DNA of 64,000 nucleotides from Clostridia bacterium (lineage in GTDB: Bacteria; Bacillota; Clostridia; Christensenellales; UBA3700), in NCBI GenBank assembly GCA_029061605.1, contig JAIDRT010000011.1:43374-107373 (forward strand), in the 5' to 3' direction. Of the stretch, positions 17,269 to 56,680 are shown piece after piece. Every line of letters starts with the position of its first letter. Position 1 is the first letter of the stretch. The notes under the pieces are model-generated. The model was not told the DNA's origin. It did no database searches and saw nothing but the letters and a program-made list of their open reading frames with translations. Position numbers and translations under genes: made by a program.

Positions 17269-17291
17269 ATATTACCTTTATAGATTTGATT

Positions 17292-25096: not shown

Positions 25097-25145
25097 ATAA
25101 AAATGTCACTATTACATAAGTAAACGTTTATAAATTTATACCTAT

Positions 25146-34570: not shown

Positions 34571-34707
34571 TGCTCTCCCCATAACTGTAAAATCTTTGAT
34601 TTTGAAAAATATAAGACTAGTAAAATATATTTATTCAATGTATCTATAATAACATAATATGGATATAATTTCAAGAGGCAAATGCGATAATTCGCGCTTA
34701 ACATTTT

Positions 34708-34918
34708 TCTTGGCTTCCCTTTGAGTTTTTATAATGTCACCTCAACCGAAATGGAGAGGTGACATTATAGACTCGTTTGACGCCGCTTACGCTACGCTCA
34801 GAGTGACGAATTGAGTGTGTTATTCTCGCTTTAAACGCGTCACCCTGAGCGTAGTCGAAGGGGCATTCTGCCATTTTGACCTACTTTTGATGTCATTTTG
34901 AGCACAGTCGAAATGACG
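34708..34918. repeat. Largest REP-like array in the window
   Basis: Components are 34708-34730 TTCTTGGCTTCCCTTTGAG (G-rich sub-unit fragment), 34736-34763 GTCACCTC...GAGGTGAC hairpin, 34779-34808 ...GCTACGCTCAGAGTGACG, 34839-34864 GTCACCCTGAGCGTAGTCGAAGGGGC and 34892-34918 GTCATTTTGAGCACAGTCGAAATGACG. Confidence 0.8.
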
Positions 34919-35033
34919 TTTATATATATTTATCCACACCTAAAAAGGTGCGTACTATATCATACACACCTTTTTAATATATCTGTTGCGTTAACAACAA
35001 TTTCACTGCTCTTTGCGCTATATGCGATTGCTC

Positions 35034-38000
35034 TTACTTCTTGTTTCTCATAGCGCGCTGCTCTTTGAGAAGATCTTGATACCGCTCGATTTGGTCTTCT
35101 CTCAAATCAATCATATTCCTTGCTACTTTGCAAGACTGCGCGTCATCAACTACGACTTCTGTCTCCTTTACCTTGACTTTTGTTCCGTCATTTGTCGCGT
35201 CTCTTCTGATGTCCTTCAAATACTCGTCTTCCATCTTAAAGAGCGCTACCGTAGTGTCTTTCTTTATCGTCAACTTGATAAGCGGATTGACGCTCGACTG
35301 ACCTAAGAGTATGAAGTAAGTCGACTTCTTCTCTTTACACTTGTCTTTCGTCAACGCGTATTCTCTTAGGCTGTCAAAGTACTTTTTCTGTTGCTTAGAC
35401 AGTCTTGCGTACGCTTCGTCAAGTGTAAGTCTCGGAGCCCTTTCCTTTGGCGTCTTTACAGGTGCGGTTACTTTTACTTCTTTCTCAATTACCTTTTCTA
35501 CCACTTTCTCTACAGGTACTTCGACTATTTTCTCTACCTCGACAGGAACTTCTACCTTGACTTCTTTCTCTACTACTTTTTCTACTTCTACTGGCACCTC
35601 AACGACTTTTTCCACTATCTTTTCGACAGGCACTTCTTTCTCAATTATCTGCGCTTGAGGTTGAGTTGTTGACAATTCCAAGATTTTTTCCATTAGTTTT
35701 TCTTGGTTTTGCATCAAGTTTTCCTGCGTCTTCATCATCTGCTTTATTGTTTCGTCATTAGCAAGCGTTGCCACTACTTCTTTCTCGACGATTTTCTCGG
35801 CAGGCTGATCCGCCATTTTCTTCATCAACAATTCTTGATTATGAGCAAGGTCTTCTTGCGTCTTCATTATCTGTTTGATAATTTCGTCATTATTCGAAGC
35901 CTGTTGAGGCAACATCTGTTGCATACCAGGTAACATTGCCGTAACTGTCTCGGAGATAAGTCCTCTCATTTCTTCGACGCTTATGCCGGATTGCGCGTAA
36001 GCGTATCCGCCCTGCGGCATTCCCTGTCCCATATTGCCGCCTGCATTTCCGCCCATCATACTCATAAACATCATTTGCATATTTTCGTCGCGCTTTCTTG
36101 CCTCTTCTTCTCTCTTTCTATCCTCTACGTCTGCCTTATTGCGCTCGTACTCGTCGCGCAACTCCTCGGCGTATATCAACGACTTGTTATACTTGCTCTT
36201 TGCTATTATCATAAATACGATACTCAATACCGCCAAGCCCATCAATACGCACGCTATCGCAGTCCAGCCTGCCGTTGCAAGTCCCAAGAACGCTCCTGCA
36301 TAATACGTCTTGTATTTGCTCTCCGCCATTCTCTTATTCTGCTTGCTCTTGGACAAATAGCCAAAGCCTTTGCTTGCAAATATTAGTATCAATATTATGG
36401 ATATTATACTTGCTATTATCTGCCACAGCGGTATCTCTTTGAGTTTTTGCAATATCTCGTCAAGTGTTCCGCCACTATTGTTGCCGCTACCTGGGTTATC
36501 TCCGCTAGGCGTATTATTGTCTCCGCTATTGCTTGGCAAATCGGGATCAGTCTGCGGATAAGACGGATTGCTTGGAGAATTTGGATCGTACAACTCTTCA
36601 TTGCCTGTTACGCTGAATTCCTTCCAAGCCGTCTCTATCGTGCCGTCGGCAAATATAAAGTTGTTCAGTTGGTCATCCTTTATCTTGCCTCTTATTCTAT
36701 ACGTCTTTCCTGCAACCAATTCGTTATACGCTACGACGTTATCGTCAGCGTCTACAATCTCATATTCTACTCCGTTGATTTGTCCATATTTCAACTTGAG
36801 CGTAGGCGGCTTGATATTGTCGTTCCACTCTACCGCTATTTGCGCTTTGACTATCGCGTAGTCAAATTCGTAATCGCCATCTATTTGGTATCTGTCTATA
36901 TATGCATTCTTTAGACTTATCTCAACTCTGTAATTTCCAACTTCCGTAGGCGCGGTGGCAAGTCTCGTATATCCGTCGTAATAAGTCAAGTCAAAAGCAG
37001 TCGTCGGCAATGCTCCGTTTGCCACTGCGAGTTTTGCGTGTCTAGGATTGGTGTTGTATTCCATAGTCGCGTTTTCAAGAGATACGCTAACTTTCGTCAA
37101 GTCTTTACCTACTCTGAATATCTTGGATTGCGCCGAAGGGTCGTCAAGCAAATAATTGAGCGTATCTTGCAATACAGGCTTTGCGATATAGAACTTGGCT
37201 TGGCTCTCCGACCAAATTATATCTTCTTTCCTAATCGGCGTATCACTCTTTATATTGCCCATTGAGTCACATTCGTAATAGTCATACGTAACCACGTCGC
37301 CGTCGGCATTGGGATCTCTTAACACCGGAATATCAAATGCCTTGCCATTGCTATCCGTAGTGGAAGAGTTCTTCCAACTTGACGCCTGTATCTCCGCCTT
37401 GACTATATTCCAACTCTTATTCCACTCAAAATCTTCGTTTAAATCGATATACGACGTCGGGTCGTTTTCGTCCGGCAGTACGTAGTTATCCTCGTATCCG
37501 CTTGCCAAGGCAAAAGTAACGTATGCCGAACCGCTCGTGCCAACCGTCGTACCGGTGTAATTGCCATAAGTCGGTATAAGTCCTTCCGGCAAGGTCTTGG
37601 GATCAAGTATCGCTTGGCTTCCGTCAACTTTGTTATACGGCAACTGTCCGTCATATTGCCACTTGACATTAGATAAATCAAACTTAGCCTTCTCAATTGT
37701 CCACTTGATAGAATACTCTTTGATTGTACCTTCTGGCGTCTTTACTCTTGCTGTAGTTATATACTCGCCTGCGTTGGTGCCTTTTGCGTTTTTATATCCA
37801 TTGATATACCCCTCTACACTATAACTTGTATCAACTGAATATCCGCTGGGCAAACTTGTTGTTAAAGAATGTTCTTTACCGCTATAAACCAATTTTATTT
37901 TATCAAATTCTGGAGTAGTCGCAATATCTATATCAAAATACATTGACGTCTTTATAACTCCATTGATACGTAACTGCCAAAAGATTGAAGAATTTACGTC

Positions 38001-40337
38001 TACTTTCTCTTGAATATTAAACGTGATATCAGTCCAAGTTGCCTTATAGTTGGTATAGTCACTGCTCCCATCTATATTTTTTACCTTAACGATCAACTTG
38101 TAATTTGCCGGTATCTCAACTTTAGACAATTGCAATTTGATTGTAAAATCAGCCATTTGGGAGTCTAGTACAAAGTCAGAATAAACCAAAGTCTCCGATT
38201 CGCTTCCCACTCGCTGTACGTAAAAATCTAATAAAACACTTTCTCCTGTACGCGGGCGAGATTGCACTTGCACATATAAATCAAGGTCTTCTTCAAGCAT
38301 ACTGTCAATTATAGTATCAGATTCTATTTTCAATTCAAGTGGCAAAGGCTCTATTTTAAACTCTAATCTCACACTGTCTTTCGCAACTGTTCCATCTTCA
38401 AATCTCCATTGAGTATTAACATTGTCCGTCAATCTCAATTCCAACTCATACGTACCCGCTTGCGCGACTTTAACAGTCACCGTTCCGTCTGTTGTTACGT
38501 TTTTGTTTAATTCATATTTACCAATAAATTCAGTAGGTATGTGTACTGTATAATCTCCCTTATAATCTCCGCCAAGTTCAAGTTCATAAGTTCTAGTAGA
38601 GCCATTATAGTTATACCAACTCTTTGGGAAGAATGTTGGCAAGGGAATATTTGTCTCAGTCTTTATAAAGTTCTTTGACAGAGCAACGTTGTCAGCCAAG
38701 GAATAATTGGAATTACTCAACGAAGTTATCGTGACAGTATAATCTCCAATTTTTTTAGGCATAGTCGTAGAGTCATATTCAGTATTGTTTCTGCCAGTAT
38801 ATTTTACATTGATATTCACAGTATCTTTGACGCCGCCGGCATTTGAACAAATCTCAGTATCAATCAGCGACGGTATTGCAACGCCCTCATCGTTATTACT
38901 CCAAGTAACGCTTAGCGGTTTTGGAGTAATCTTAAACTCAAATACTCTCGTATAATCATCCTCGCCTTTACTTGTATCAGGTTCCCCCGCAAAAACAGCG
39001 CCTGTTGCAATTGTGTCATCATTAAGTTTTACTGTAACCGCGTGAGTTTTAGCGCTTTTCATATCTGTAGGACAACTCAAAGCCGACATATAATTTGTGT
39101 TATACCAATTCGTTTTAGTTGTATCTGAGATATAGGATAGATCTTGAATCTCTCCGTTGTATTGACTTTCTACGTCGGACGGCTCTGAAAAGCCCACTCT
39201 ATCTACGACTTTTTTTAAATTGAGATGGAATGCAGGTCGCACGCCATTGCTGTAAATAGGTCCAACATTTCCTACTCCCATACCTGTGCCTCCTGCGGCC
39301 AATACATACACACAATCGTAATTAAAATAACGAGCCGACCTCAACCACACAGTCTGACTGTTAGAGCGTTGATTATTGGATAACTTCCACATTCCTTCAA
39401 CTCCGTTTACACCTGTTTCAGCAATACTTGGGAGCCATATTGAGTCAGCGCCCCAAGCCTTATAGCCAGTAGTATCTACTGTAGCGTCAGTCAAAAAATT
39501 GGCAGCAGTACCGTTTCCGCCCAAATCTAATGCGTCGTTATTATTATTGTAACCATAAGAAGTCCTGTATTCGCTGGACGTGACGTGAGTCAATGCTTGT
39601 TGATTGCGTTGCCAACTCACATTGTTAGGTACTTCTATAAATTCCTTTATGCTACCCGCTACGCCCTGCGCTTTGGTCATAGTATATATAGCCCAATCAC
39701 TACTTGCGCTTTGAGCAACACTAGTAAGCGAACTTGCATTATACGCTGCGGCATAACCGCCGCCATTATTGAGTACGCTCGCGCGCATCCAACTTGTTCC
39801 GTACATAGGGCTAGGATATTTTCCTTTACTGTTAGTTACGCTTGTATTGAAATTAGCGCTCCTAACTTTATTCTCACTGGAATTAGCCAGCCAAAAAGTT
39901 AATATTGGCTCTCCACTACTATTTGTAGATAAGTATGTGGGCATCCATTTTAATCCGTTTATCTCTACAACAAGATCCTTGCCATTATTTATACTGTTTC
40001 CATTATTTCTAATATCATTTGAAGTCTTAGTCAATGCTAAAGTAGCAATATCTGACAATTTCATATTTTTTTGTCCGGTTATCGCTTCAATCATATCAAA
40101 GAATACCGCACCGTTGAATACTTTTCCTGTGCCAGTCGTATCCCCCTCATAGCCATCCAACAACAGTTCTCCCAAATTTTTTGCTTGAGCGCTGGAAACT
40201 TCTCCATTTGTTATCGTAAGCGCTTCTGTTGATTTACACTTTAAAGATATTACTCCTATGCAACTTATCAACATTGCTAGCGCAATGATAGTCACTAGGC
40301 ATACTTTTTGTACTCTTATTTGTTTGCTAAAATTCAT
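35034..40337 (-). CDS. Giant surface protein (1767 aa): signal peptide, WLRS...VRPAFHLNL (DUF6273-like) domain, Ig-like repeats, membrane-spanning segment(s), ~390-aa charged repeat-rich tail
   Basis: The ORF is uninterrupted. I place the start at ATG 40337, 6 nt after AAGAGGTG (the track start is GTG 40346). Hydrophobic segments are IIASIISIILILIFA and AGAFLGLATAGWTAIACVLMGLAVLSIVFMIIA near aa 1300-1380. The tail has a duplicated NDE(I/T)IKQ(I/M)MKTQE(D/N)L motif and VEKxVExPVE tandem repeats. Confidence 0.85.
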   Translation of the reverse strand: MNFSKQIRVQKVCLVTIIALAMLISCIGVISLKCKSTEALTITNGEVSSAQAKNLGELLLDGYEGDTTGTGKVFNGAVFFDMIEAITGQKNMKLSDIATLALTKTSNDIRNNGNSINNGKDLVVEINGLKWMPTYLSTNSSGEPILTFWLANSSENKVRSANFNTSVTNSKGKYPSPMYGTSWMRASVLNNGGGYAAAYNASSLTSVAQSASSDWAIYTMTKAQGVAGSIKEFIEVPNNVSWQRNQQALTHVTSSEYRTSYGYNNNNDALDLGGNGTAANFLTDATVDTTGYKAWGADSIWLPSIAETGVNGVEGMWKLSNNQRSNSQTVWLRSARYFNYDCVYVLAAGGTGMGVGNVGPIYSNGVRPAFHLNLKKVVDRVGFSEPSDVESQYNGEIQDLSYISDTTKTNWYNTNYMSALSCPTDMKSAKTHAVTVKLNDDTIATGAVFAGEPDTSKGEDDYTRVFEFKITPKPLSVTWSNNDEGVAIPSLIDTEICSNAGGVKDTVNINVKYTGRNNTEYDSTTMPKKIGDYTVTITSLSNSNYSLADNVALSKNFIKTETNIPLPTFFPKSWYNYNGSTRTYELELGGDYKGDYTVHIPTEFIGKYELNKNVTTDGTVTVKVAQAGTYELELRLTDNVNTQWRFEDGTVAKDSVRLEFKIEPLPLELKIESDTIIDSMLEEDLDLYVQVQSRPRTGESVLLDFYVQRVGSESETLVYSDFVLDSQMADFTIKLQLSKVEIPANYKLIVKVKNIDGSSDYTNYKATWTDITFNIQEKVDVNSSIFWQLRINGVIKTSMYFDIDIATTPEFDKIKLVYSGKEHSLTTSLPSGYSVDTSYSVEGYINGYKNAKGTNAGEYITTARVKTPEGTIKEYSIKWTIEKAKFDLSNVKWQYDGQLPYNKVDGSQAILDPKTLPEGLIPTYGNYTGTTVGTSGSAYVTFALASGYEDNYVLPDENDPTSYIDLNEDFEWNKSWNIVKAEIQASSWKNSSTTDSNGKAFDIPVLRDPNADGDVVTYDYYECDSMGNIKSDTPIRKEDIIWSESQAKFYIAKPVLQDTLNYLLDDPSAQSKIFRVGKDLTKVSVSLENATMEYNTNPRHAKLAVANGALPTTAFDLTYYDGYTRLATAPTEVGNYRVEISLKNAYIDRYQIDGDYEFDYAIVKAQIAVEWNDNIKPPTLKLKYGQINGVEYEIVDADDNVVAYNELVAGKTYRIRGKIKDDQLNNFIFADGTIETAWKEFSVTGNEELYDPNSPSNPSYPQTDPDLPSNSGDNNTPSGDNPGSGNNSGGTLDEILQKLKEIPLWQIIASIISIILILIFASKGFGYLSKSKQNKRMAESKYKTYYAGAFLGLATAGWTAIACVLMGLAVLSIVFMIIAKSKYNKSLIYAEELRDEYERNKADVEDRKREEEARKRDENMQMMFMSMMGGNAGGNMGQGMPQGGYAYAQSGISVEEMRGLISETVTAMLPGMQQMLPQQASNNDEIIKQIMKTQEDLAHNQELLMKKMADQPAEKIVEKEVVATLANDETIKQMMKTQENLMQNQEKLMEKILELSTTQPQAQIIEKEVPVEKIVEKVVEVPVEVEKVVEKEVKVEVPVEVEKIVEVPVEKVVEKVIEKEVKVTAPVKTPKERAPRLTLDEAYARLSKQQKKYFDSLREYALTKDKCKEKKSTYFILLGQSSVNPLIKLTIKKDTTVALFKMEDEYLKDIRRDATNDGTKVKVKETEVVVDDAQSCKVARNMIDLREDQIERYQDLLKEQRAMRNKK

Positions 40338-40443
40338 TGTCGACACCTCTTTTGTCTTATATACTTTTATACAATAGGCTCTTCTAAACCAAAATTTGTA
40401 TATTTTTTTAACAACTTACAAACTTTGATTTGAGTACGAAATT

Positions 40444-40562
40444 CTAAAAAAAGTATACTTTTACTGACCCAAAAATATTGCAAATTATTGATACGCGAAG
40501 TATAATGTAATTGAAAAAATTTGCCTTTTCGCAGGCAGTCAGTAAAAGTATACTTTTTTTGG
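40444..40562 (+). promoter_or_regulatory. 25-bp inverted repeats flanking a near-consensus sigma-70 promoter
   Basis: CTAAAAAAAGTATACTTTTACTGAC (40444-40468) and GTCAGTAAAAGTATACTTTTTTTGG (40538-40562) match at 24/25 positions. Each contains the perfect palindrome AAAAGTATACTTTT. Between them lie TTGCAA (40478-40483), a 17-nt spacer and TATAAT (40501-40506) on the plus strand. Confidence 0.65.
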
Positions 40563-40609
40563 AAAAGTGAAAAATTGGCATTAAATTAGAATTTAATTGG
40601 ATAAAACGA

Positions 40610-40640
40610 ATGACACACAAGTTTGTTGCGTGTCATTTTT
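40610..40640. terminator. Rho-independent terminator-like hairpin
   Basis: ATGACACACAA-GTTTG-TTGCGTGTCAT has 11 bp with 1 mismatch. It is followed by TTTTT on the plus strand and by TTCGTTTTAT on the minus strand. Confidence 0.65.
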
Positions 40641-40666
40641 ACGGATATATTATATTACATTAGATA

Positions 40667-40799
40667 TTTTGACTTAACTACGTTTCGCTCAATATGACAT
40701 ATTATTTCATTTGACTTGGCTTCCCCTTGAGGGGAGGCTCCGCCATAGGCGGTGGTGAGGTGTTTTATGTCACCTCGAGCGTAGTTGTACGGTCTAATC
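40667..40799. repeat. REP-like cluster incl. G-rich hairpin sub-unit
   Basis: Components are 40667-40698 TTTTGACTTAACTACGTTTCGCTCAATATGAC, 40711-40762 TTGACTTGGCTTCCCCTTGAGGGGAGGCTCCGCCATAGGCGGTGGTGAGGTG and 40769-40799 GTCACCTCGAGCGTAGTTGTACGGTCTAATC. The last unit overlaps the stop codon of the next gene. Confidence 0.8.
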
Positions 40800-41001
40800 A
40801 TTGTTTAACGATCTCTGCAAAATCTTCAAAAGAATACCCTTTTCTTTTCATATCTGGGTCGGCTACGTTGAAAAAACAACTTGGTATTTCTCTCAACTTT
40901 AAATTCTTTGCAATGCAAAGCGAGCATCCCTTGTCGTGATTTGTTGGGTGCAACGGACACTTGGTATCCTTGCAGGTGCAAAACTCACTTAGATTTGACA
41001 T
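40798..41001 (-). CDS. Small cysteine-rich protein (DUF6485-like)
   Basis: 67 aa with the pattern CTC...CPLHPTNHDKGCSLC...IPSCFF. It lies 20 nt downstream of the ALDH gene. Confidence 0.6.
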   Translation of the reverse strand: MSNLSEFCTCKDTKCPLHPTNHDKGCSLCIAKNLKLREIPSCFFNVADPDMKRKGYSFEDFAEIVKQ

Positions 41002-41021
41002 AGTATTTCCTCCTGAGTTTT

Positions 41022-42389
41022 CTATTTCATAAAGAATTTTATCAATTTATAGTGCTTATCAGTATAAGGCTGATAGCGCACAGGCAAATCAAAGTAAGTC
41101 TTTTTGTCGATTATGCTCTTATAATGAGTGAAGGTATCAAAGCCTGCTTTGCCGTGATACTGCCCCATACCGCTTTGCTTGAGACCGCCAAAAGGCAAAG
41201 TCGACGACGCTATGTGCATAATCGTATCGTTGATACAGCCGCCGCCAAACTTACAACGCGACGTCACCTCGTTTTGATTTTGCTTGCTCTGCGAGAAGAA
41301 GTAAAGCGCAAGCGGCGTTGACATTGAGTTGACTTTGGCGATCGCCTCGTCTAATTCCTCAAAAGTGACGATTGGCAACACCGGTCCGAACATCTCGCAA
41401 TTCATTTCTGGACGGTCAAAATCTGAATCAAGTAAAGTCGGTTGAATTTTGAGTTTTTCCTCGTTGACTTTTCCGCCGTAGAGCAATCTGTCATTATCAA
41501 TATAATTCTTTACTTTGTCAAAGTGTTTTTGATTGATTATCTTGGGATAATTTTCATTCGTCAATGGATCTTCAGAGTATTGAATTTGTATTTGCTTTTT
41601 GAGTTCTTCCACCAACTGCGCCTTGACTGCCTTGTCGCAATATATGAAGTCAGGCGCTACGCACGTCTGTCCAGAATTGAGGAACTTGCCAAATACTATG
41701 CGCCTTGCCGCAAGCGGAATATCTGCCGTCTTGTCGACAATGCAAGGACTTTTTCCGCCCATCTCCAAAGTGATTGGCGTAAACTTTTCGGCAGCCTTTT
41801 GCATTACAATTTTGCCCACTGCCGTGCTACCGGTGTAGAAAATATAGTCAAAGTCTTGTTCCATCAAAAAGGCGTTTTCTTCCCTACCGCCGCTCACGAC
41901 TATGACCTCGTTTGTTTCAAATGTCTTTTGCACAAGTTTTTCTATTACGCAAGAAGTGTTGTGCGAATACCTGCTAGGCTTGAGAACTACGCTATTGCCT
42001 GCGGAAATCGCATCGACTAGCGGCTCTATAGAAAGCATAAACGGATAATTCCAAGGGCTCATAATGAGCACACAACCGTAAGGACACGGCGTAATCACGC
42101 TCTTTGCAGGGAATTGGAAAAACTCGCTTCTAAACTTCTTTGGTCGAGAAAACTTCTTGATATGCCTCAACATATAAGATATTTCGCAAAGTACCATTCC
42201 TATTTCAGTCGTATAACTCTCAACTTCGCTCTTGTTGAGGTCTGCTTTGAGTGCGGCAAAAATATCCTCTTTCATAAGCAGAATGTTTTGATACAACTTC
42301 TTGAGCGCCTTAATCCTCTTTTTATAATCCCAAAAAGCGCGTTCCGCCTTTTGCTTTTCTATACAAGTCAATATTTCTTCTCTTTCCAT
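41022..42389 (-). CDS. Aldehyde dehydrogenase family protein (ALDH3-type)
   Basis: Motifs are LEMGGKSPCIVD (catalytic Glu region), FLNSGQTCVAPD (catalytic Cys) and GSTAVGK. I place the start at ATG 42389, after GAGGT (track start 42404). Confidence 0.9.
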   Translation of the reverse strand: MEREEILTCIEKQKAERAFWDYKKRIKALKKLYQNILLMKEDIFAALKADLNKSEVESYTTEIGMVLCEISYMLRHIKKFSRPKKFRSEFFQFPAKSVITPCPYGCVLIMSPWNYPFMLSIEPLVDAISAGNSVVLKPSRYSHNTSCVIEKLVQKTFETNEVIVVSGGREENAFLMEQDFDYIFYTGSTAVGKIVMQKAAEKFTPITLEMGGKSPCIVDKTADIPLAARRIVFGKFLNSGQTCVAPDFIYCDKAVKAQLVEELKKQIQIQYSEDPLTNENYPKIINQKHFDKVKNYIDNDRLLYGGKVNEEKLKIQPTLLDSDFDRPEMNCEMFGPVLPIVTFEELDEAIAKVNSMSTPLALYFFSQSKQNQNEVTSRCKFGGGCINDTIMHIASSTLPFGGLKQSGMGQYHGKAGFDTFTHYKSIIDKKTYFDLPVRYQPYTDKHYKLIKFFMK

Positions 42390-42429
42390 ACCAACCTCAT
42401 TCATATACTTTTTAAGTTATTCGTATTAC

Positions 42430-42531
42430 GTCACCTCAACCGCAGTATGAATATATCTATCCTTTTTCTTGGCTTCTCCTTGAGGAGAGGCTCCGCTATA
42501 GGCGGCGGTGAGATGTCTTCCTTGCCGTCCC
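42430..42531. repeat. REP-like cluster incl. second full G-rich hairpin sub-unit
   Basis: Components are 42430-42442 GTCACCTCAACCG (as at 34736), 42466-42515 TTCTTGGCTTCTCCTTGAGGAGAGGCTCCGCTATAGGCGGCGGTGAGATG and 42520-42531 CTTGCCGTCCCC (reverse complement seen at 48975-48990). Confidence 0.8.
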
Positions 42532-42533
42532 CA

Positions 42534-42977
42534 TTATACGCGTTGACTAATACTTTCAAGATTATTGCTTAAGACAGCCAAGCATTTATAAAATACCGCC
42601 ATTTCATCCTTAGTCAATCCCATATCCGACTTCGACAAAATATTGTCAATTATCTCCGCAATTTCTCTGCCTGTCTTTTCGCCCTGCTCCGTAAGGCAAA
42701 GTTGACTTTTATACCTCTTTTCTTTCTTCGCGTCGCAAGAGATATATCCGTGTTCTTCAAGATACTCCAGCGAACGCGATATTGCTGCCTTGTCCTCTAG
42801 ACATATATCGCAAAGTTGTCTTGCCGTCAATTTCCCTTCGTTTTTATACATATAATAAAGGCAGGATACGTGAGTGCTTTTGAGACCAAACTTGCTCATC
42901 TCCTTGGTCTTGATCTTGAGTATGCTCCTTGATATCTTGTTTATCAATGTCGTAAAAGTGTTAAATCTGTCAATCAT
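42534..42977 (-). CDS. MarR family transcriptional regulator
   Basis: 147 aa from ATG 42977 (GGAG RBS at 7 nt; the track start is TTG 43025). The winged-helix region is LTARQLCDICLEDKAAISRSLEYLEEHGYI. Confidence 0.85.
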   Translation of the reverse strand: MIDRFNTFTTLINKISRSILKIKTKEMSKFGLKSTHVSCLYYMYKNEGKLTARQLCDICLEDKAAISRSLEYLEEHGYISCDAKKEKRYKSQLCLTEQGEKTGREIAEIIDNILSKSDMGLTKDEMAVFYKCLAVLSNNLESISQRV

Positions 42978-43032
42978 TTCTCTGCTCCGCTGACTATCGA
43001 CATTTGATTTGCAAGTCGCATACAAGCGCTCA

Positions 43033-43052
43033 CTTGTTGATATATCAACAAG
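43033..43052. promoter_or_regulatory. Perfect 20-bp palindrome, candidate MarR operator
   Basis: CTTGTTGATATATCAACAAG lies 56 bp upstream of the MarR start codon. Confidence 0.65.
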
Positions 43053-43099
43053 CCATAATATATCACAAGACTATCAGTATGTCAATAATTTGAGTGTAA

Positions 43100-43136
43100 A
43101 ATGAAGTTTAAAGCGCAAAAGACCGTGTGGGTCTTT
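43100..43136. terminator. Strong hairpin between luxS and the MarR gene
   Basis: AAAGCGCAAAAGACC-GTGTG-GGTCTTTTGCGCTTT is a 15-bp perfect stem with A/T-run flanks. Confidence 0.75.
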
Positions 43137-43168
43137 TGCGCTTTTTCATTTGAATTCAAAAGTCATAA

Positions 43169-43594
43169 TCACCTTGTCAACACATCAAGATACTTGGCAA
43201 TCTCGTTCTTTGCCTCTTCAAGATTATGTTCTCTAAAGTTGCCGCACTCCTTTTGCGTAGTTCCTGGCACGCTATCAAGCGTCAAACACTTCTTGAGACA
43301 TTCTATAGTGACGCGCTTTGCCTCTTGCTCCTGTATGCCAAAAAGCAAAAGATAGCACCCGGTACGGCACCCCATAGGACCAAAATATACCACCTTGTCC
43401 TTTATCTCGCTGTTGCGAATAACCACCGCAAAAAGATGCTCAATAGAATGCAAAGCGGCGTAAGATATATAATCCCCTTTGTTGGGATATTTGAATCGCA
43501 TATCATATGTATATACGCCGTTTGCCTCGCCAAGACAATAAAAGCCGGGCGTCATTGCGTCGTGATCGAGTTCAAAAGATTTTATGTTGTCCAT
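43169..43594 (-). CDS. luxS: S-ribosylhomocysteine lyase LuxS
   Basis: The metal-binding motif HSIEHL and GPMGCRTG are present. I place the start at ATG 43594, 6 nt after GAGGAG (the track start 43663 adds 23 unlikely residues). Confidence 0.92.
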   Translation of the reverse strand: MDNIKSFELDHDAMTPGFYCLGEANGVYTYDMRFKYPNKGDYISYAALHSIEHLFAVVIRNSEIKDKVVYFGPMGCRTGCYLLLFGIQEQEAKRVTIECLKKCLTLDSVPGTTQKECGNFREHNLEEAKNEIAKYLDVLTR

Positions 43595-43741
43595 AGTCTT
43601 CTCCTCACTTGCTTTCGTCAATTTCCTTTGAAGTATTATACGATAACAAACTTTGCAAGTCAATAAATTCTGTCATTTACGACGTTTTTTTGCGTTTTTG
43701 TCGGACTTTGCTCTTTTGAGCGGTTTTATATTTTTTGCCTA

Positions 43742-43771
43742 TTGACAGCGCAAGCCGACAGCATATATAAT
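43742..43771 (+). promoter_or_regulatory. Promoter of the GPH transporter operon
   Basis: TTGACA (43742-43747), an 18-nt spacer, then TATAAT (43766-43771). Confidence 0.6.
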
Positions 43772-43821
43772 TATATATATTGATTAAATATTTTATTATA
43801 ATATTATATTAAGGTGGAATT

Positions 43822-45408
43822 ATGACAGACGAAAAAGATATTGCGACTTGCGATACCTCAAAAGAAGAAACTACAACTGCGAGCGGTTATTCCGCTCCGC
43901 CTATGAAGACTTGGGAAAAGATTGCATACGGCGGCGGAGAGATTTACGGCAGCGGTTACGCCGCTTTGCTTGGCGTGGTGCTGTCCTTCTTCTTGACCAA
44001 TCTCGTACTCGTGGGAATCAAGAATGCAGAACTTTATGCGGCGATAATCATAGTCGTGTCAAAAGTATGGGATGCAATATCCGACCCGCTTATGGGCGTG
44101 ATATCCGACAACACTCGCACGAAGATAGGCAGGCGCAGACCTTGGATAATAATTGGCGGTGCGCTGGTGCCGGTTGCGTTTGCGATAATGTTTATGCCGT
44201 GGGCAAAGAATATTGAGAATCAAGCGTTGAGAATAATTTACGCTTGCGTGGGTTATTTCCTGCTCTGCACCGTCAACACGATTTCGCAAGTGCCTTACGC
44301 CTCTTTGAGCGCAGAAATCTCTGGCGACTTCAAAGAGCGCAACAAAGCAAATTCTATCAAACTACTATTCTCTCTCGTATGCTCGGGACTTTTCTTCTTG
44401 ATACCGTCGGCGGCTACAGAGGCTTATTCTGCGTACCTCAAAGGCACGACGTCTATGTACGGCACCACGAATGAGACAGGCTTTTTCCTTATCGTAGCAG
44501 TGCTTTGCGGAGTTATATTCGGCGTGGCAACAGTGCTAGTCGGCGTATTCAGCAAAGAGCGCATACCTTATGACAAAACGCAAAAGAGCAAGTTTTCTTT
44601 CAAAAGTTATGCCGTACCGCTTAAAAACAAATCTTATAGATACCATCTTATGATGTATCTTATGGCTTTTGGCTGTTATGATTTCATATCTGCGTTGGTA
44701 CTCTATTACGTCACGGCAGTAGTGCCAAGCATAACGATATTCGGTATGAAAATGAGTTCGCTGTTTATCGTCGCGCCTATGATGGTAATGGCTGCAATAA
44801 CATATCCTTTGAATATGAAACTTAAAAATACCAAAGGCAAGCAATTCGTATACCGTTGGGGATTGCCTTGCTATATTCTCGGCGCGCTTGGTTTGGCGGT
44901 CTTCCCCAATACGACCAACACAAACGTGAGTTGGATTCTTCTGCTGTGCTCGGCAATAATGGGCGTGGGCTTTGGCGGAGCGCAAATGATGCCTTGGATG
45001 ATCTTCCCTGACACGCAGGACGTGGCGGAACTCAAGACGGGCATAAAAGACACAGGCTGTTACAGCGGTCTTATGACTTTCACTCGCAAGATTGGCACTG
45101 CCATTGCGCAAAGCATTGTGCTTATTGTACTCGCTTGCGTAGGTTACAGCGAGTGTACGGAAAAAATATACAATCAAGAATTGGACGCATACCCAGCAAA
45201 AGTGACGCTGGCTATTAGAATACTCTTTGGAGTAGTCGTAGTCGTAATGATAAGTCTTGCGATATGGGCGTCGTTGCAATATAAGGTCACAGACCAAAAG
45301 TTGACAAGAATAAAATACTTCCTTGAGAAACAACGCGCAGGCGAAAACGATACGCTGACGGACGAGGAAAAAGCAGAAAAAGATGCATTAATAAAGGAAC
45401 TTGGTTGA
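43822..45408 (+). CDS. Glycoside-pentoside-hexuronide (GPH) family cation symporter (MFS)
   Basis: 528 aa, about 12 TM helices. The motif DAISDPLMGVISDNTRTKIGRRRPWI is typical of the GPH family. Confidence 0.85.
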   Translation: MTDEKDIATCDTSKEETTTASGYSAPPMKTWEKIAYGGGEIYGSGYAALLGVVLSFFLTNLVLVGIKNAELYAAIIIVVSKVWDAISDPLMGVISDNTRTKIGRRRPWIIIGGALVPVAFAIMFMPWAKNIENQALRIIYACVGYFLLCTVNTISQVPYASLSAEISGDFKERNKANSIKLLFSLVCSGLFFLIPSAATEAYSAYLKGTTSMYGTTNETGFFLIVAVLCGVIFGVATVLVGVFSKERIPYDKTQKSKFSFKSYAVPLKNKSYRYHLMMYLMAFGCYDFISALVLYYVTAVVPSITIFGMKMSSLFIVAPMMVMAAITYPLNMKLKNTKGKQFVYRWGLPCYILGALGLAVFPNTTNTNVSWILLLCSAIMGVGFGGAQMMPWMIFPDTQDVAELKTGIKDTGCYSGLMTFTRKIGTAIAQSIVLIVLACVGYSECTEKIYNQELDAYPAKVTLAIRILFGVVVVVMISLAIWASLQYKVTDQKLTRIKYFLEKQRAGENDTLTDEEKAEKDALIKELG

Positions 45409-45409
45409 T

Positions 45410-46213
45410 ATGGATTTCAATACTACACCGCTTACAAAACTTACTGGCAGTCTATGCAAAATTATGGGCGTCGAGCCGCCTGAGCATTCAGAAGGAGTGA
45501 TAGACGAACTCGTCAATTACGCAATGGCAAAGACGGAAGGCAGATGCGTAGACAGAATACTTATGTACAACCCAGACGCAATAGGTCAGTGGTCATACGA
45601 AAAATACTCCGACAAGTTTGAGCCTATGCGCGAACACGCTCCGTTTGAACTCAATATGCTGACGGTGTTTCCACCAAAGACCCCTGTATGCTTTGGCAGT
45701 ATGTACACAGGCGCAAGTCCTCAAGTGCACGGCATACAGCATTACGTCAAGTCGCTTATTACGATAGACAGCATATTTGACGCTCTTATAAGAGCAGGCA
45801 AAAAGCCTTGTATTGTCACTGTCAAAAACTCTTCTCTATCCAAGATTTTTAATGAGAAAAATATGGATTACTACCTTGAAGATTATGACAACGAAGTTGT
45901 TGCGCGCGCAGTTGAACTCATCAAGCAGGATAAGTATGACTTCATAGTCGTATATAATCAAGAATTTGATGACGTAATGCACCGCTCGCACCCAAATTCC
46001 AAACGCTCGCAAAAGGCTCTTGACCACCACGCGCAATCTTTTGATATACTTGGCAAACACGTCAAAGAGTATTGGAAAGGACACGATACTTTGATAGGCT
46101 GCGCAACCGATCACGGCACGCACCGCGAATGGTATCTTCTCGGTCAGCATTGCAAAAATATCCCTGAAGATATGAACGTCAAGCACTATTACGGAGTTAT
46201 TCCCAAAGAATAA
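45410..46213 (+). CDS. Type I phosphodiesterase/nucleotide pyrophosphatase (alkaline phosphatase superfamily) protein
   Basis: The nucleophile region is FPPKTPVCFGSMYTGASPQVHGI. Metal ligand motifs are FDDVMHRSHP and ATDHGTH. It starts 1 nt after the transporter stop. Confidence 0.7.
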   Translation: MDFNTTPLTKLTGSLCKIMGVEPPEHSEGVIDELVNYAMAKTEGRCVDRILMYNPDAIGQWSYEKYSDKFEPMREHAPFELNMLTVFPPKTPVCFGSMYTGASPQVHGIQHYVKSLITIDSIFDALIRAGKKPCIVTVKNSSLSKIFNEKNMDYYLEDYDNEVVARAVELIKQDKYDFIVVYNQEFDDVMHRSHPNSKRSQKALDHHAQSFDILGKHVKEYWKGHDTLIGCATDHGTHREWYLLGQHCKNIPEDMNVKHYYGVIPKE

Positions 46214-46231
46214 TTTGCAAATGCACTTTTT

Positions 46232-46264
46232 CCCGACGCCAAAATCGCGTTGGGATTTTTTCTT
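46232..46264 (+). terminator. Rho-independent terminator
   Basis: CCCGACGC-CAAAATC-GCGTTGGG is followed by ATTTTTTTC. Confidence 0.7.
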
Positions 46265-46386
46265 TTAATGCATATTTTCCACCCAAAACACCGCAATTCT
46301 ACCTATATTCGACTTAATTCTATTGAAAAGTAATTGCAAAATGATTTAAACTATCATTGCAAAGCCAATACAAGGAGAACGAATGT

Positions 46387-47109
46387 ATGAACGATTTTTC
46401 AGAATTTTTATACACCCTTCGCAAGGAAAAAGGTATGACGCAAGCGCAACTTGCTGAACTTTTGGGCGTAACCAACAAAGCCGTGTCAAAATGGGAAACA
46501 GGCGAGGCAATGCCCGAAACCAGCCTGCTCTTGCCGCTATCTCGTATATTAGACGTAACGGTAGACGAACTGTTAGACGGCAAACGCAAGATTGAGAATA
46601 CAACGAATTATGAAGATATTAAGCACGAAACTACGTCTGAAGAATACGACCCAAAAGCGCAATTTGATTTTGACGATATCAAACGACATATGTTTACCAA
46701 AGGAAAAGAAGACGAAAAAACCGTGTTGGAAAGCGTATGCGGAGTTGTGTGCGCAAGCGTCTTTTTCTTGGGGCTTATATCATATTTATTGATAGGCGCA
46801 GTCTGGAATCTATGGTCGCCGTATTGGATAATAATCCCAATATGCACTCTATCTTGCGGTATAATTGGTATAATTTTTGACTTATTCGATGTCAAGAAAC
46901 GCAATAGAAAAAAAGAACGCGGAGAAAATCCATATATTGGCGCAATTTGCGGAGTAATTATGCTTGTCTGCACACTCACTTATTTGATTTTGGGCGTGAT
47001 ATTCTCACTGTGGCATCCATATTGGATAATAATTGTGATAGGCTCTTTCTTGTGCGCTATAATCGGCTCAATCGGCGGAATTATCTCACATAAAAACCAC
47101 AAGAACTAA
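46387..47109 (+). CDS. Membrane-tethered XRE-family HTH regulator
   Basis: The HTH is MTQAQLAELLGVTNKAVSKWETGEAMP. The C-terminal half has two similar double-TM modules (WNLWSPYWIIIPIC... / FSLWHPYWIIIVIG...). AAGGAG lies upstream of ATG 46387. Confidence 0.85.
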   Translation: MNDFSEFLYTLRKEKGMTQAQLAELLGVTNKAVSKWETGEAMPETSLLLPLSRILDVTVDELLDGKRKIENTTNYEDIKHETTSEEYDPKAQFDFDDIKRHMFTKGKEDEKTVLESVCGVVCASVFFLGLISYLLIGAVWNLWSPYWIIIPICTLSCGIIGIIFDLFDVKKRNRKKERGENPYIGAICGVIMLVCTLTYLILGVIFSLWHPYWIIIVIGSFLCAIIGSIGGIISHKNHKN

Positions 47110-47193
47110 TATAACGTGCAAAATATCCATATTTTGTCAAAATAGTACATATATGGTATTGACTTTTACCATAATTTATAGTTTAATATAAAT

Positions 47194-47898
47194 ATGGAAG
47201 TTATAATGTATATTTTAGTGGCGGTTTGTATCGCTCTTGGCGTATTCAAATCCTATTCCCGAAATAAGGGCAACTTCGATATTGAATTGATTGCAAAGAC
47301 GTGCGGATCGCTTTGCTTTGTCGCCGTAGGCGTACTCGCCTTTTATCTATCCGAGCACACCGGCAAAGAAAAGTCATATGCCCTTGCCGTAATTTTAGGT
47401 CTAATACTTGGATTGATAGGAGATATATTCCTATGCCTCTATGACTGCAATTCTCATCCAAAAAGAAAAAATCTAATTCAGACTGTGGGCGTAGCGTTCT
47501 TTTTCTTGGGACACCTATGCTATATGTTCAACTTCCTGACGCTTGAGCCCTTTAAACTCTATCTGCTCCCCACGCTTATAGTCTTGCCAATCGTATATAT
47601 CATACTTGCCTGCAAAGTCCTCACTTCAAGCAAGGCTCAAAATATAATGCTGGCAATATACTATCTTGCGCTCAATCTGATACTCACGTCTTCTATCAAC
47701 CTTATGATTGTGAGAGGCGTCAACGCATTTACTCTGCTCAACTTGATTGGTTGTGTACTCTTTATATCATCTGACACAGTGCTGGGACTGTCTTGGTTTG
47801 CGCCGTCGCTTAAACTTCCCAAAAGTCACGATTATTATATCATTTTGAGTTACTACGCCGCTCAATGTCTGTTTGCATTGTCAATATTCTTTATATAA
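47194..47898 (+). CDS. YhhN/lysoplasmalogenase family membrane protein
   Basis: About 8 TM helices. The motifs GLIGDIFL and FISSDTVLG are typical of YhhN. Confidence 0.7.
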   Translation: MEVIMYILVAVCIALGVFKSYSRNKGNFDIELIAKTCGSLCFVAVGVLAFYLSEHTGKEKSYALAVILGLILGLIGDIFLCLYDCNSHPKRKNLIQTVGVAFFFLGHLCYMFNFLTLEPFKLYLLPTLIVLPIVYIILACKVLTSSKAQNIMLAIYYLALNLILTSSINLMIVRGVNAFTLLNLIGCVLFISSDTVLGLSWFAPSLKLPKSHDYYIILSYYAAQCLFALSIFFI

Positions 47899-47907
47899 GA
47901 TAATAAT

Positions 47908-48192
47908 TTATTGTTTATCTTTGAGTTCATATCCGCAAATCTCAAGGGCTAATTTTGCTCCGTACAAAAATCCTTGCTTAAAATATTGTTCATTTATTAT
48001 GCTTTCATATCCTGCGGTAGCCAAATCATATTGAAAAAATATTGCCTTAAATTTATCATCTCCCTCTACTCTTTTCAGCATCAAATCTTGCCATTTCAAT
48101 ACTTCGTCAAGTTCTTTTTTGTAAAACTTTTTATCAATTACTACTTGATTTCCAACAATATCTCTATATAATTGTAATATTTTTGATTGCAT
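47908..48192 (-). CDS. Hypothetical small protein (94-104 aa)
   Basis: The ORF is AT-rich and divergent from the tandem-HTH gene. ATG 48192 is preceded by AAAGGAG (10-nt spacing); the track start is GTG 48222. I recognise no motif except a C-terminal QGFLYGAKLALE helix. Confidence 0.55.
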   Translation of the reverse strand: MQSKILQLYRDIVGNQVVIDKKFYKKELDEVLKWQDLMLKRVEGDDKFKAIFFQYDLATAGYESIINEQYFKQGFLYGAKLALEICGYELKDKQ

Positions 48193-48219
48193 AATGCTTG
48201 TATCTCCTTTGTTTTTGCT

Positions 48220-48254
48220 CACTATATTGATAATATTGTATACTGCATATAGTG
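48220..48254. promoter_or_regulatory. 8-bp inverted repeat in divergent intergenic region (candidate operator)
   Basis: CACTATAT (48220-48227) and ATATAGTG (48247-48254) are separated by 19 bp. Confidence 0.4.
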
Positions 48255-48298
48255 GGGTGTCAATAGAATTTTAATGAAAATAGTGAGAAAATTTTAAT

Positions 48299-48748
48299 AT
48301 GGATGCAAAATTTACTTCAAACATAAAAAAGTTGAGAAAAGAGTTTAACATATCTCAACTTCAACTATCACTAGAAATCGGATATGGAAAGAGTATCATA
48401 AGTTATTGGGAAACCAGTTTTCGTATTCCTTGCGCAGATGCCATCATAATTTTATCTCGATACTTTCAAGTAAGCACTGATTATGTATTAAACTTAACAG
48501 ACGACAATACTATGTTACATCGCATAGATGATTTTGAAGTAGATATGTCTACATTTAATTTAAGACTAAAAGAATTGAGAAAACAAAAGAATCTATCACA
48601 AGACCAACTTGCATTAAAAACAGGACTAACTCAAACTTCTATAAACCATTGGGAAAAAGGCAAATGCATACCTACTGCAGACGCTATCGTTGCGCTTGCC
48701 CGCTACTTTGGCGTGACTACAGATTATTTATTGGGCGAAAGCGATTAA
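48299..48748 (+). CDS. Tandem double-HTH XRE-family protein
   Basis: There are two HTH_3 modules: LRKEFNISQLQLSLEIGYGKSIISYWET...STDYVL and LRKQKNLSQDQLALKTGLTQTSINHWEK...TTDYLLGE. Confidence 0.85.
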   Translation: MDAKFTSNIKKLRKEFNISQLQLSLEIGYGKSIISYWETSFRIPCADAIIILSRYFQVSTDYVLNLTDDNTMLHRIDDFEVDMSTFNLRLKELRKQKNLSQDQLALKTGLTQTSINHWEKGKCIPTADAIVALARYFGVTTDYLLGESD

Positions 48749-48757
48749 ATATTGATA

Positions 48758-48993
48758 GAGATTTCTTGCGTTCTGCTCAGAATAACGCGTTGAATGCGCA
48801 AGTATGTTAGGCGAAAAGCAGTGTTTGCAATTATTACATCATAGTTTTTGGTTTAGTTACTCTCGAATTTTTGATAAATCTCACTAAAAAATATGGTAGT
48901 AATTTTGCAAATTCTGCTTGAGCCTTTCGTCACATCTTCTACACCCCCCTTCCGTCACCTCGTGACACCTTCCCCTCAAGGGGACGGCAAGAA
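48758..48993. repeat. REP-like units
   Basis: Units are 48758-48787 GAGATTTCTTGCGTTCTGCTCAGAATAACG and 48955-48993 GTCACCTCGTGACACCTTCCCCTCAAGGGGACGGCAAGAA. The latter is the G-rich sub-unit in the opposite orientation, with a CCCC-TCAA-GGGG hairpin. Confidence 0.7.
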
Positions 48994-49026
48994 TAAAAAC
49001 GATTTTTAGTACGAAAGGAGCGACGC

Positions 49027-49575
49027 TTATACGCTGTCGCTCTTTGTTAGTTTTTCTTTAATGACTTTTAAAAGGTCAATGTCTTTGACAGTACAATACG
49101 TCGATAAAATCGGCACTGCAAGGAATATTGCTCCCATTATCGTGCCCAAAGTGTATATCACGTGTTGCCAACCGTTGTTGCCGACCAGATTTTGGAATGC
49201 AACTACGATTTCTCTTACCATACTGTCCAAAAAATCAGGCAAAGTTGCGCCTGCGCCCACTGGATACATAAGTATAAATGCCATAAAAAGCGGTATCGTC
49301 ATTATAGTGCTGTATACGCACACAGCAATTGAAAAGATAGTCTTGACTTTGCCCTCAAAAGTGCCTGCCGCCGCAGACATAAGCATTATGCCTATTGCAT
49401 TCGTCACTATGACGACGACGTATCTCAAAATAATGTTGGGAATTGCGCTGATATACCCCAGTCCCGCATTGCTGCCTGTAGCCTGCACGATAGACATTAT
49501 ACCCAATATTATAAACACTGCCGCTACGGCAATCATTACGCTTTGCTTGATGATTTTCTTTTTCTTCTCGTCCAT
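49027..49575 (-). CDS. Polytopic membrane protein of unknown function
   Basis: The start is MDEKKKKIIKQS... at ATG 49575, after AGGGGA. It has 5-6 hydrophobic helices. The mirror plus-strand ORF (49061..49663) looks non-protein-like. Confidence 0.65.
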   Translation of the reverse strand: MDEKKKKIIKQSVMIAVAAVFIILGIMSIVQATGSNAGLGYISAIPNIILRYVVVIVTNAIGIMLMSAAAGTFEGKVKTIFSIAVCVYSTIMTIPLFMAFILMYPVGAGATLPDFLDSMVREIVVAFQNLVGNNGWQHVIYTLGTIMGAIFLAVPILSTYCTVKDIDLLKVIKEKLTKSDSV

Positions 49576-49666
49576 AATTTCCCCTAACGGCAAGATTTTG
49601 CCGACAAATAATAATTTCATTATAAAGTATATTGCGCCTCAATGCAATATATTTTTAAAATAAATT

Positions 49667-50450: not shown

Positions 50451-50458
50451 TCTCTTAC

Positions 50459-50537
50459 GTCATTTCTAGCGTAGTCGAGAAATCTAATCCTATTAAGATT
50501 ATAATGACAGCGACCTCTCCACTGCGGTCGAGGTGAC
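50459..50537. repeat. Convergent pair of REP-like units between convergent genes
   Basis: Units are 50459-50490 GTCATTTCTAGCGTAGTCGAGAAATCTAATCC and 50510-50537 GCGACCTCTCCACTGCGGTCGAGGTGAC. Confidence 0.8.
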
Positions 50538-50550
50538 ATTAATTGATAAA

Positions 50551-52560: not shown

Positions 52561-52577
52561 AATAACGGTAAATCGAT

Positions 52578-52615
52578 AGATTCTTCAACTCCACTGCGTT
52601 TCGGTCAGAATGACA
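52578..52615. repeat. REP-like unit
   Basis: TAGATTCTTCAACTCCACTGCGTTTCGGTCAGAATGAC is nearly identical in layout to 17292-17330. Confidence 0.8.
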
Positions 52616-56598: not shown

Positions 56599-56652
56599 AT
56601 CAATATTGTATATTATTTATATGGAATTTGCAACGAAAAATCTACCTCTTAC

Positions 56653-56680
56653 GTCATTTCGAGCGTAGTCGAGAAATCTA
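56653..56680. repeat. REP-like unit overlapping a stop codon
   Basis: The CTA (56678-56680) of GTCATTTCGAGCGTAGTCGAGAAATCTA is the TAG stop of the 56678..57583 gene. Confidence 0.8.

Follow-up and report, generated by a model that had tools for sequence, protein, structure and literature searches.

The locus studied here raises the question of what two similar G-rich units are doing on either side of a pair of genes. It lies in a 64-kb stretch of DNA from a Clostridia bacterium (contig JAIDRT010000011.1; the whole 64,000 nucleotides analysed are termed the window), where the units flank genes for an aldehyde dehydrogenase (ALDH) and a DUF6485 protein in the same orientation. Each can fold into two hairpins, and an original prediction, made from the sequence, proposed that the hairpins are under selection and that the repeats might confer mobility on the gene pair. 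We find that the units belong to a very large and apparently undescribed family of two-hairpin elements, the structure of which covaries, and that they are probably dispersed palindromic DNA modules carried as passengers in an ordinary operon.

The window, with a GC content of 40.8%, is the reverse complement of part of the 123,790-bp metagenome contig ERZ14208416 NODE_30 in the European Nucleotide Archive (ENA). The 45-mers first quoted (40715-40759 and 42468-42512, both on the + strand) have 4 mismatches, and a comparable match was found in none of 100 shuffled sequences. With limits set by a covariance model each unit becomes 48 nt in length (copy 1, 40715-40762, and copy 2, 42468-42515), and the two units have five differences, as originally counted. 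They comprise a hairpin with a TTGA loop (hairpin 1), a second hairpin (hairpin 2) and a 3′ box. On going from copy 1 to copy 2, C10 of hairpin 1 is replaced by T and G19 by A (i.e. CCCC/GGGG becomes CTCC/GGAG), which is a compensated pair. At the loop-closing pair of hairpin 2 a change of C to T converts C-G to T.G, also as predicted, although this pairing is confined to the + strand; on the − strand the result is a C.A mismatch. The other two changes (T to C and G to A) are in the 3′ box. One compensated pair among five differences has a probability of roughly 0.05 by our own estimate; taken alone the two copies are suggestive, and the structural argument is carried by data at the level of the family.

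The reverse-orientation copy, noticed originally as 18 nt, proved to be a complete 48-nt unit on the − strand (copy 3, 48944-48991), in which CTTGCCGTCCCC-TTGA-GGGGAAGGTG is followed by GTCAC-GAG-GTGAC and then by a degenerate box. It is located between convergent genes at 48299-48748 (+) and 49027-49620 (−). All three window copies are intergenic. Both strands fold as two adjacent hairpins, with hairpin 1 longer on the + strand because of its G.T (or G.U) pairs, and the folding energies of single copies are modestly better than those of their shuffles (z between −0.9 and −3.2).

A scan of metagenome sequences with the pattern CTTGSCNTCNCCTTGAGGNGANGG found at least 120 loci with the same architecture in gut, rumen and human-gut assemblies, on contigs with GC contents of 37-69% (median 58%). 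The pattern required GANGG and therefore did not match copies 1 and 2, which have GAGGC, but it does match copy 3. Hairpin 1 of the metagenome copies is CCTTCCCC-TTGA-GGGGAAGG, with 9-10 bp, and is almost invariant. Hairpin 2 differs in sequence and length from copy to copy and is nearly always palindromic, and the 3′ box is G-rich, with the form (C/T)G(A/G)TGAGGTG; copies matched by the scan carry the conserved box CGGATGAGGTG. There are two subtypes. Subtype A has CTYGGCTTCCCC-TTGA-GGGGAAGCT, hairpin 2 and then TGATGAGGTG, while subtype B has CTTGCCTTCCCC-TTGA-GGGGAAGGTG, hairpin 2 and then CGGATGAGGTG. Subtype A was found as a bystander in the scanned loci, reading GGCTTCCCC-TTGA-GGGGAAGCT, hairpin 2 and TGATGAGGTG.

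A covariance model (R1) was constructed from 71 copies, all of them from metagenomes and none from the window. In the 64 kb it gave exactly three full-length matches, all spanning model positions 1-50 (Table 1), and in 488 kb of metagenome loci it gave 185. The order of hairpin 1 with its TTGA loop, hairpin 2 and G-rich box is present in the window copies both in their folds and in the alignment to R1, and the three copies are members of the two-hairpin family. This family is very large and abundant in the Clostridia of gut and rumen. It is apparently undescribed. Searching Rfam 15 gave no match at the gathering threshold, none with E ≤ 5 over 34500-49200, and none with E ≤ 1 in seven copy-rich loci. 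No publication containing the family core sequence on either strand was found, and a literature search for repetitive extragenic palindromes (REPs) in Clostridia returned nothing relevant. One REP survey makes no mention of Firmicutes or Clostridia (PMC3733652), and another mentions Clostridia in passing, only for the taxonomic distribution of IS200-type transposases (PMC6006769). The first scan, of species-representative genomes with the pattern CTTGGCTTNNNNTTGANNNNAGGCTC that includes the window-specific AGGCTC, gave 12 matches in unrelated taxa, none with stems, where about 17 would be expected by chance, as estimated from the size of the collection.

The structure of the element covaries across the family. 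At positions left free by the scan pattern, counted over 118 unique metagenome copies, pair 7-22 is TA in 110, CG in 7 and mismatched in 1, while pair 10-19 (i.e. the pair that is compensated between copies 1 and 2) is CG in 104, TA in 8, GC in 1 and mismatched in 5. A flip between G-C and C-G at pair 5-24 separates subtypes A and B. The CTCC/GGAG variant is a recurrent allele, present in subtype A as well as subtype B and combined with many different second hairpins. For hairpin 2, 102 copies yield 80 sequences of 11 to 59 nt, yet in 99 of the 102 it folds better than its own shuffles; the loops are mostly of the G..A type (GAA, GCA, GTA and GNNA). In the 71-sequence alignment 93.5% of cells pair, compared with 81.9% after column shuffling and 44-55% with slid partners, and 9 of the 15 pairs have changed on both sides; G.U pairs are rare in hairpin 2. 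At the level of the family the covariation is strong, and of the claim that the hairpin is under selection the part that stands is that its structure is maintained. The conservation may result from selection on an RNA, from selection on a DNA hairpin, or from a mutational process that restores palindromes. The near-perfect palindromy of hairpin 2, with few G.T pairs and mostly G..A loops, is more in keeping with DNA hairpins than with a typical RNA.

The elements are dispersed without regard to the function of their neighbours. The 129 open reading frames (ORFs) flanking metagenome copies belong to 127 different Pfam families, none of which occurs more than twice, and these are of housekeeping type (Pth, HisG, PRPP synthase, Hfq, DprA and others). 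Judged from rough ORF calls there is no orientation bias relative to the neighbouring genes, and co-directional, convergent and divergent spacers are all used. Neighbouring copies within 250 nt of each other are inverted in 39 cases and direct in 6. The inverted neighbours comprise 27 that are tail-to-tail, with spacers of 30-64 nt, and 12 that are head-to-head; 16 of the 27 tail-to-tail pairs mix subtypes A and B. Some metagenome contigs have at least 5 copies within less than 9 kb, and many begin or end at an element, pointing to a high copy number.

We note that an inverted pair of family members is present at 2890-3050 of the Klebsiella pneumoniae plasmid pKP13f (NZ_CP004000.1), directly upstream of the rsmH-tgt-rmtG genes that are found on resistance plasmids of Klebsiella and Enterobacter. 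With model R1 one member scores 38.2 bits (E = 3e-10) and the other 20 bits, and the variants of hairpin 1, CCTTCCTC/GAGGAAGG and GGCTCCCTC/GAGGGAGCT, are compensated. The pair hints at capture of the rmtG region from the chromosome of a Firmicute.

We turn now to the flanked genes. ALDH and DUF6485 follow a gene for a MarR-family regulator on the − strand, preceded by a promoter-like site (Table 1). We found no terminator separating MarR from ALDH, and copy 2 is therefore likely to be intercistronic, while a terminator-like hairpin lies beyond the repeat cluster that follows DUF6485, placing copy 1 in the 3′ untranslated region (UTR), transcribed antisense to its own CTTG to GAGGTG orientation. 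Copies 1 and 2 are thus probably transcribed within the operon mRNA, antisense relative to the element.

In three related species (L140, L143 and L149) LuxS-ALDH-DUF6485 is syntenic, with LuxS upstream and the same genes downstream. L140 (GCA_029058005.1; DUF6485 78% identical) has the order ProRS ... YhhN-HTH-Phosphodiest-MFS-LuxS-ALDH-DUF6485-662 aa-MFS-Lactamase_B, the same long-range order as the window, and lacks MarR, a gene for a 1767-aa protein and the HTH_3/94-aa genes. L143 (GCA_948560855.1; 88% identical) has LuxS-ALDH-DUF6485, with spacers that hold a second repeat family, described below. Neither L140 nor L143 contains a copy of the element detectable with model R1. L149 (MarR 79% identical) has LuxS, a terminator, a promoter and MarR, then a 51-nt AT-rich spacer and ALDH; this spacer, read directly, contains no repeat and constitutes an empty site for copy 2. 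Since the element is absent from the orthologous spacers of the three related species, the window copies are gains in the lineage of this species. Among contigs of the same species (98-100% identical) MarR-ALDH-DUF6485 and both repeats are kept in 5 of 5. The ALDH-DUF6485 pair is therefore ancestral and fixed, and forms an ordinary, vertically inherited operon, into the spacers of which the repeats have come recently. The original prediction had itself named an invariant, syntenic cassette as the outcome that would speak against mobility, and the pair is syntenic and retained everywhere we compared it, both with and without the repeats.

The possibility that the repeats arrived by hitch-hiking with horizontally acquired neighbours was rejected, as the GC content of MarR is host-like and L149 has LuxS-MarR-ALDH without a repeat; MarR was thus in place before the repeat, which gives no support to co-transfer. 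Relative to the synteny with L140, the window has as extras the 1767-aa protein (35034-40346, − strand; it has internal repeats and no Pfam match), MarR (42534-42977, − strand), and HTH_3 with a 94-aa ORF (47908-48748). All four G-rich element copies or relics adjoin such variable genes, although given the repeat-free MarR-ALDH of L149 this may be coincidental.

Copies 1 and 2 share the change of A22 to G, the CCGCYATAGGCGG hairpin and the GGTGAG box, all of which are absent among the metagenome copies listed and inspected. These shared derived characters make the two copies closest to one another, and the compensated change therefore arose, or was converted, within the lineage of the window; most likely one was copied from the other inside this lineage. 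Beyond them, the closest relatives are at loci L110 (GGCTTCCCCTTGAGGGGAAGCTCCGCGAAGCGGTGATGAGGTG) and L111. In strain contigs of the same species we find a loop change in copy 2, and a copy 1 with the same C to T change at the closing pair; in one strain contig (L018) hairpin 2 is disrupted (GGAGA) and the outer pair of hairpin 1 is broken. Individual copies are thus not under absolute constraint. In L018 and a further strain contig (L019) an insertion of 35-36 nt, GTGTGAGCATCAATAT(T)CTAATGCAAATAAAATAT, also lies between copy 1 and the flanking repeat on its left (window 40700-40712), so this spacer is prone to insertion and deletion. Gene callers predict a 48-aa 'protein' (MIRPYNYARGDIKHLTTAYGGASPQGEAK...) across copy 1 (window 40654-40800, − strand, equivalent to 11589-11735 of contig L001). 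A protein search with it found relatives only at the same locus in other strains, and we reject it as a spurious gene that is merely a translation of the repeat cluster.

We conclude that the 48-nt unit is probably a REP-like, non-autonomous dispersed palindromic DNA module, and that the copies at this locus are passengers. This builds on family membership, covariation, intergenic dispersal, the inverted doublets and the absence from the spacers of three related species. The module would spread as mobile DNA via a single-stranded hairpin intermediate recognised by a trans-acting enzyme, for which the invariant hairpin 1 and the box would be the recognition part. As passengers in the MarR-ALDH-DUF6485 transcription unit, one copy would be intercistronic and the other in the 3′ UTR; at most they might modulate mRNA processing or stability there, by analogy with the REPs of E. 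coli. In common with REPs, bacterial interspersed mosaic elements (BIMEs) and REP doublets forming hairpins (REPINs), the family consists of short, GC-rich imperfect palindromes that are extragenic and lie beside unrelated genes, with two subtypes paired in inverted orientation at a fixed short spacing (cf. the Y and Z REPs of BIMEs, and REPIN doublets). Like REPs and BIMEs, it forms mosaic clusters with other motifs and is often found in 3′ UTRs or between cistrons. It differs in having, instead of a single conserved palindrome, a bipartite unit in which an invariant hairpin is followed by a hypervariable one and by a conserved 3′ box, and in its host, which is Clostridia rather than Enterobacteria or Pseudomonas.

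BOX elements of Streptococcus pneumoniae, to which other stem-loop repeats of Firmicutes are similar, have a modular boxA-boxB-boxC organization, are intergenic with strong predicted secondary structure, and have no transposase of their own. Their modules are around 45-60 nt each and AT-richer, and vary in copy number and composition. By this description the present family resembles them as a modular, structured intergenic repeat of Gram-positive bacteria, with the variability here taking the form of a hypervariable palindrome. As to miniature inverted-repeat transposable elements (MITEs), no target-site duplication is common to the flanks of the three window copies, the 5′ flank being merely T-rich, and the terminal inverted repeats of a MITE were not found.

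Several observations weigh against the proposal of a mobile REP-like module. The basis for mobility is presence or absence between species, not transposition as such. In its 64 kb the window holds just 3 copies and 2 relics, which all lie between 34.7 and 49.0 kb, and its copies are solo; the inverted doublets at short spacing that characterize REPs, BIMEs and REPINs are present across the family and not within the window. Classical REPs are defined by a GTAG tag and a REP-associated tyrosine transposase (RAYT). No GTAG or CGTC tetranucleotide is present at the foot of the hairpin, the consensus starting NNNG(C/G)CTTCCCC, and the reverse strand of hairpin 2 reads CGTC in some variants but not consistently. 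In 823 kb of the window and loci no Y1 (RAYT/IS200-like) match was found by tblastn with an IS200 TnpA query, a search that is weak for distant RAYTs and in which one gene per genome would easily be missed; nor is there a transposase among the 25 listed of the 127 Pfam families that flank metagenome copies. Having found neither GTAG nor RAYT, we call the element REP/BIME-like and do not class it as a RAYT-type REP. Lastly, the G.T pairs of hairpin 1 in the window are possible on the + strand only, and the consensus also has G4.T25 (63 of 71 sequences). This hints at a strand specificity that would be needless for a purely double-stranded DNA role.

The same pairs would be expected if the element were a structured non-coding or cis-regulatory RNA on the CTTG to GAGGTG strand, with hairpin 1 and the box binding a factor; GAGGTG resembles a Shine-Dalgarno sequence. 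The G.U-compatible pairs (G4.U25 of the consensus, and T7.G22 and the T.G closing pair in the window) are confined to the + strand, which folds as RNA with a 9-bp hairpin 1 against 5+2 bp for the − strand, and the covariation is strong. Nevertheless we consider an RNA motif unlikely. Copies 1 and 2 of the window lie antisense to the transcription unit that contains them, the family has neither an orientation preference nor an associated gene class, inverted doublets dominate, and hairpin 2 has very few G.U pairs. Moreover there is no match in Rfam, and the z-scores of the RNA folds are weak (−0.2 to −2.8). A hammerhead ribozyme, prompted by CTGATGAG in subtype A, was rejected. The subtype A box reads CTGATGAGG right after the hairpin, resembling the hammerhead core (CUGAUGAG), but subtype B has CGGATGAGG (CGGATGAG), the GAAA element and the three-way junction are missing, and Rfam gives no match.

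It is improbable that the elements are inert relics in which structure is kept by mutation (intrastrand template switching or gene conversion in quasi-palindromes) and not by selection. The arms of hairpin 2 are near-perfect complements with few wobble intermediates, as such a process might leave them, L018 has its broken hairpin 2 and outer hairpin 1 pair, and the window copies depart from the consensus in box and loops. Yet hairpin 1 and the 3′ box hardly vary over contigs of 37-69% GC, for which neutral decay with palindrome correction provides no explanation. Still less probable is a role for the hairpins as transcription terminators or attenuators of the flanking genes. They are GC-rich stem-loops 22 nt after the MarR stop codon and 36 nt after that of DUF6485, and in a consensus scan of the + strand hairpin 2 of copy 1, with GTGTTTTA after it, is flagged; on the coding (−) strand, however, the hairpins are followed by A-runs and not T-runs, a separate canonical terminator is present at 40637-40609, and most family copies have no T-tract, some lying between divergent genes. 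Least credible of all, and largely refuted by the synteny without repeats and the retention of the genes in all same-species contigs, is that the direct repeats are recombination sites (attC-like or homologous) of a mobile or excisable ALDH-DUF6485 cassette: two 48-nt units that are about 90% identical, direct and 1.75 kb apart do bracket exactly two genes, RecA-independent deletion between them is possible in principle, and attC sites too are imperfect palindromes with structure conserved over sequence, present as direct repeats flanking genes, but there are no R/L boxes (GTTRRRY or RYYYAAC), no cassette array and no integrase or transposase among the Pfam labels of genes called around the locus, the flanked genes are syntenic core, and at other loci the copies of the family bracket nothing in particular and mostly form inverted pairs.

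Table 1. Features of the ALDH-DUF6485 locus and of the repeat families in the window.
Feature	Position	Strand	Remarks
Truncated relic CTTGGCTTCCCTTTGAG	34709-34725	+	hairpin 1 5′ arm and loop; direct-repeat family D13; undetected by model R1
Terminator-like hairpin and T-run	40609-40637	−	downstream of DUF6485 and repeat cluster
Second family, left arm (GTCAYYTCGAGCGNAG..., reverse-complemented)	40659-40698	+	families D2, D5; spacer of inverted pair holds copy 1
Copy 1, subtype A	40715-40762	+	R1 51.3 bits, E = 5.5e-13, full length
Copy 1 hairpin 1	40718-40739	+	9 pairs including two G.T; loop TTGA 40727-40730
Copy 1 hairpin 2	40740-40752	+	CCGCC-ATA-GGCGG
Copy 1 3′ box TGGTGAGGTG	40753-40762	+	
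Second family, right arm (GTCACCTCGAGCGTAGTTG...)	40762-40797	+	families D3, I9
DUF6485	40798-41001	−	Pfam label
Aldehyde dehydrogenase (ALDH)	41022-42389	−	Pfam label
Second family, half-element GTCACCTCAACCGCAGT	42430-42446	+	beside copy 2; weak reverse R1 match 42432-42495
Copy 2, subtype A	42468-42515	+	R1 40.3 bits, E = 8.9e-10
Copy 2 hairpin 1	42471-42492	+	CTCC/GGAG variant
Copy 2 hairpin 2	42493-42505	+	CCGCT-ATA-GGCGG; closing pair T.G
Copy 2 3′ box CGGTGAGATG	42506-42515	+	
12-nt relic CTTGCCGTCCCC	42521-42532	+	same as start of copy 3; short, possibly chance
MarR-family regulator	42534-42977	−	Pfam label
Promoter-like site before MarR	43085-43057	−	
Copy 3, subtype B	48944-48991	−	R1 47.6 bits, E = 6.8e-12; also fits metagenome scan pattern
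Second family, window	619-747, 3784-3947, 17290-17400, 24995-25100, 34732-34915, 40659-40698, 40762-40797		families D2, D3, D5, D6, D8, I1, I2, I6, I9
Second family, window, remainder	42430-42446, 50452-50542, 52575-52614, 56646-56681, 60053-60092, 63546-63581		

Of the two relics in Table 1, the truncated one is downstream of the 1767-aa gene and the 12-nt one abuts the MarR stop codon (42534-42536). The second dispersed hairpin repeat family is more abundant in the window, and consists of GTCAYYTCGAGCGNAGTCGAGARRTC and its reverse complement together with an GAGACCTCTCCACTNCGGTCGAGGTGAC variant. It fills many intergenic spacers (GTCAYYTCGAGCGNAG...), often as inverted pairs, and forms mosaics with the two-hairpin element. 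The CACCTC of the right arm beside copy 1 can pair with GAGGTG in the 3′ box of that copy, and the half-element beside copy 2 is orthologous to a complete element upstream of ALDH in L143.

Two further features of the window may be noted. At 40442-40564 a 27-nt inverted repeat (96% complementary) surrounds a 69-nt segment that holds a promoter-like TTGCAA-17-TATAAT on the + strand (40478-40506). The segment, about 100 nt upstream of the − strand gene for the 1767-aa protein, is a candidate invertible promoter that in this orientation faces away from that gene. Inversion was not found in strain contig L004, where the orientation is the same; this contig is unusually divergent within the segment and ends at the left arm. 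Near the left end of the window a 300-nt direct repeat (1-300 and 3166-3465, 95% identity) adjoins two very large ORFs (767-3772 and 4116-8828, − strand).

At this locus, then, a false lead to a mobile cassette is removed, and the repeats are passengers. Taking the REP-like reading a step further, we tentatively suggest that the elements constitute an undescribed and very widespread REPIN-like mobile superfamily of gut and rumen Clostridia, in which hairpin 1 and the box would be the handle for a trans-acting enzyme other than a GTAG-reading RAYT. If this is true, the hypervariable but palindromic hairpin 2 would imply a single-stranded DNA hairpin intermediate with copying that regenerates the palindrome, or else strong structural selection, and the elements would be a fingerprint of lineage that could indicate the Firmicute origin of plasmid-captured DNA such as the rsmH-tgt-rmtG region of Klebsiella. 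Being very abundant in gut and rumen metagenomes, the family breaks assemblies and gives rise to spurious small ORFs; the model would provide annotators with a means of masking such sequences, and a possible marker for horizontally captured DNA. The biology of REPs and RAYTs has been studied mainly in Proteobacteria, and a Firmicute family with a conserved hairpin, a variable hairpin, a box and heterotypic A/B doublets would broaden that picture.

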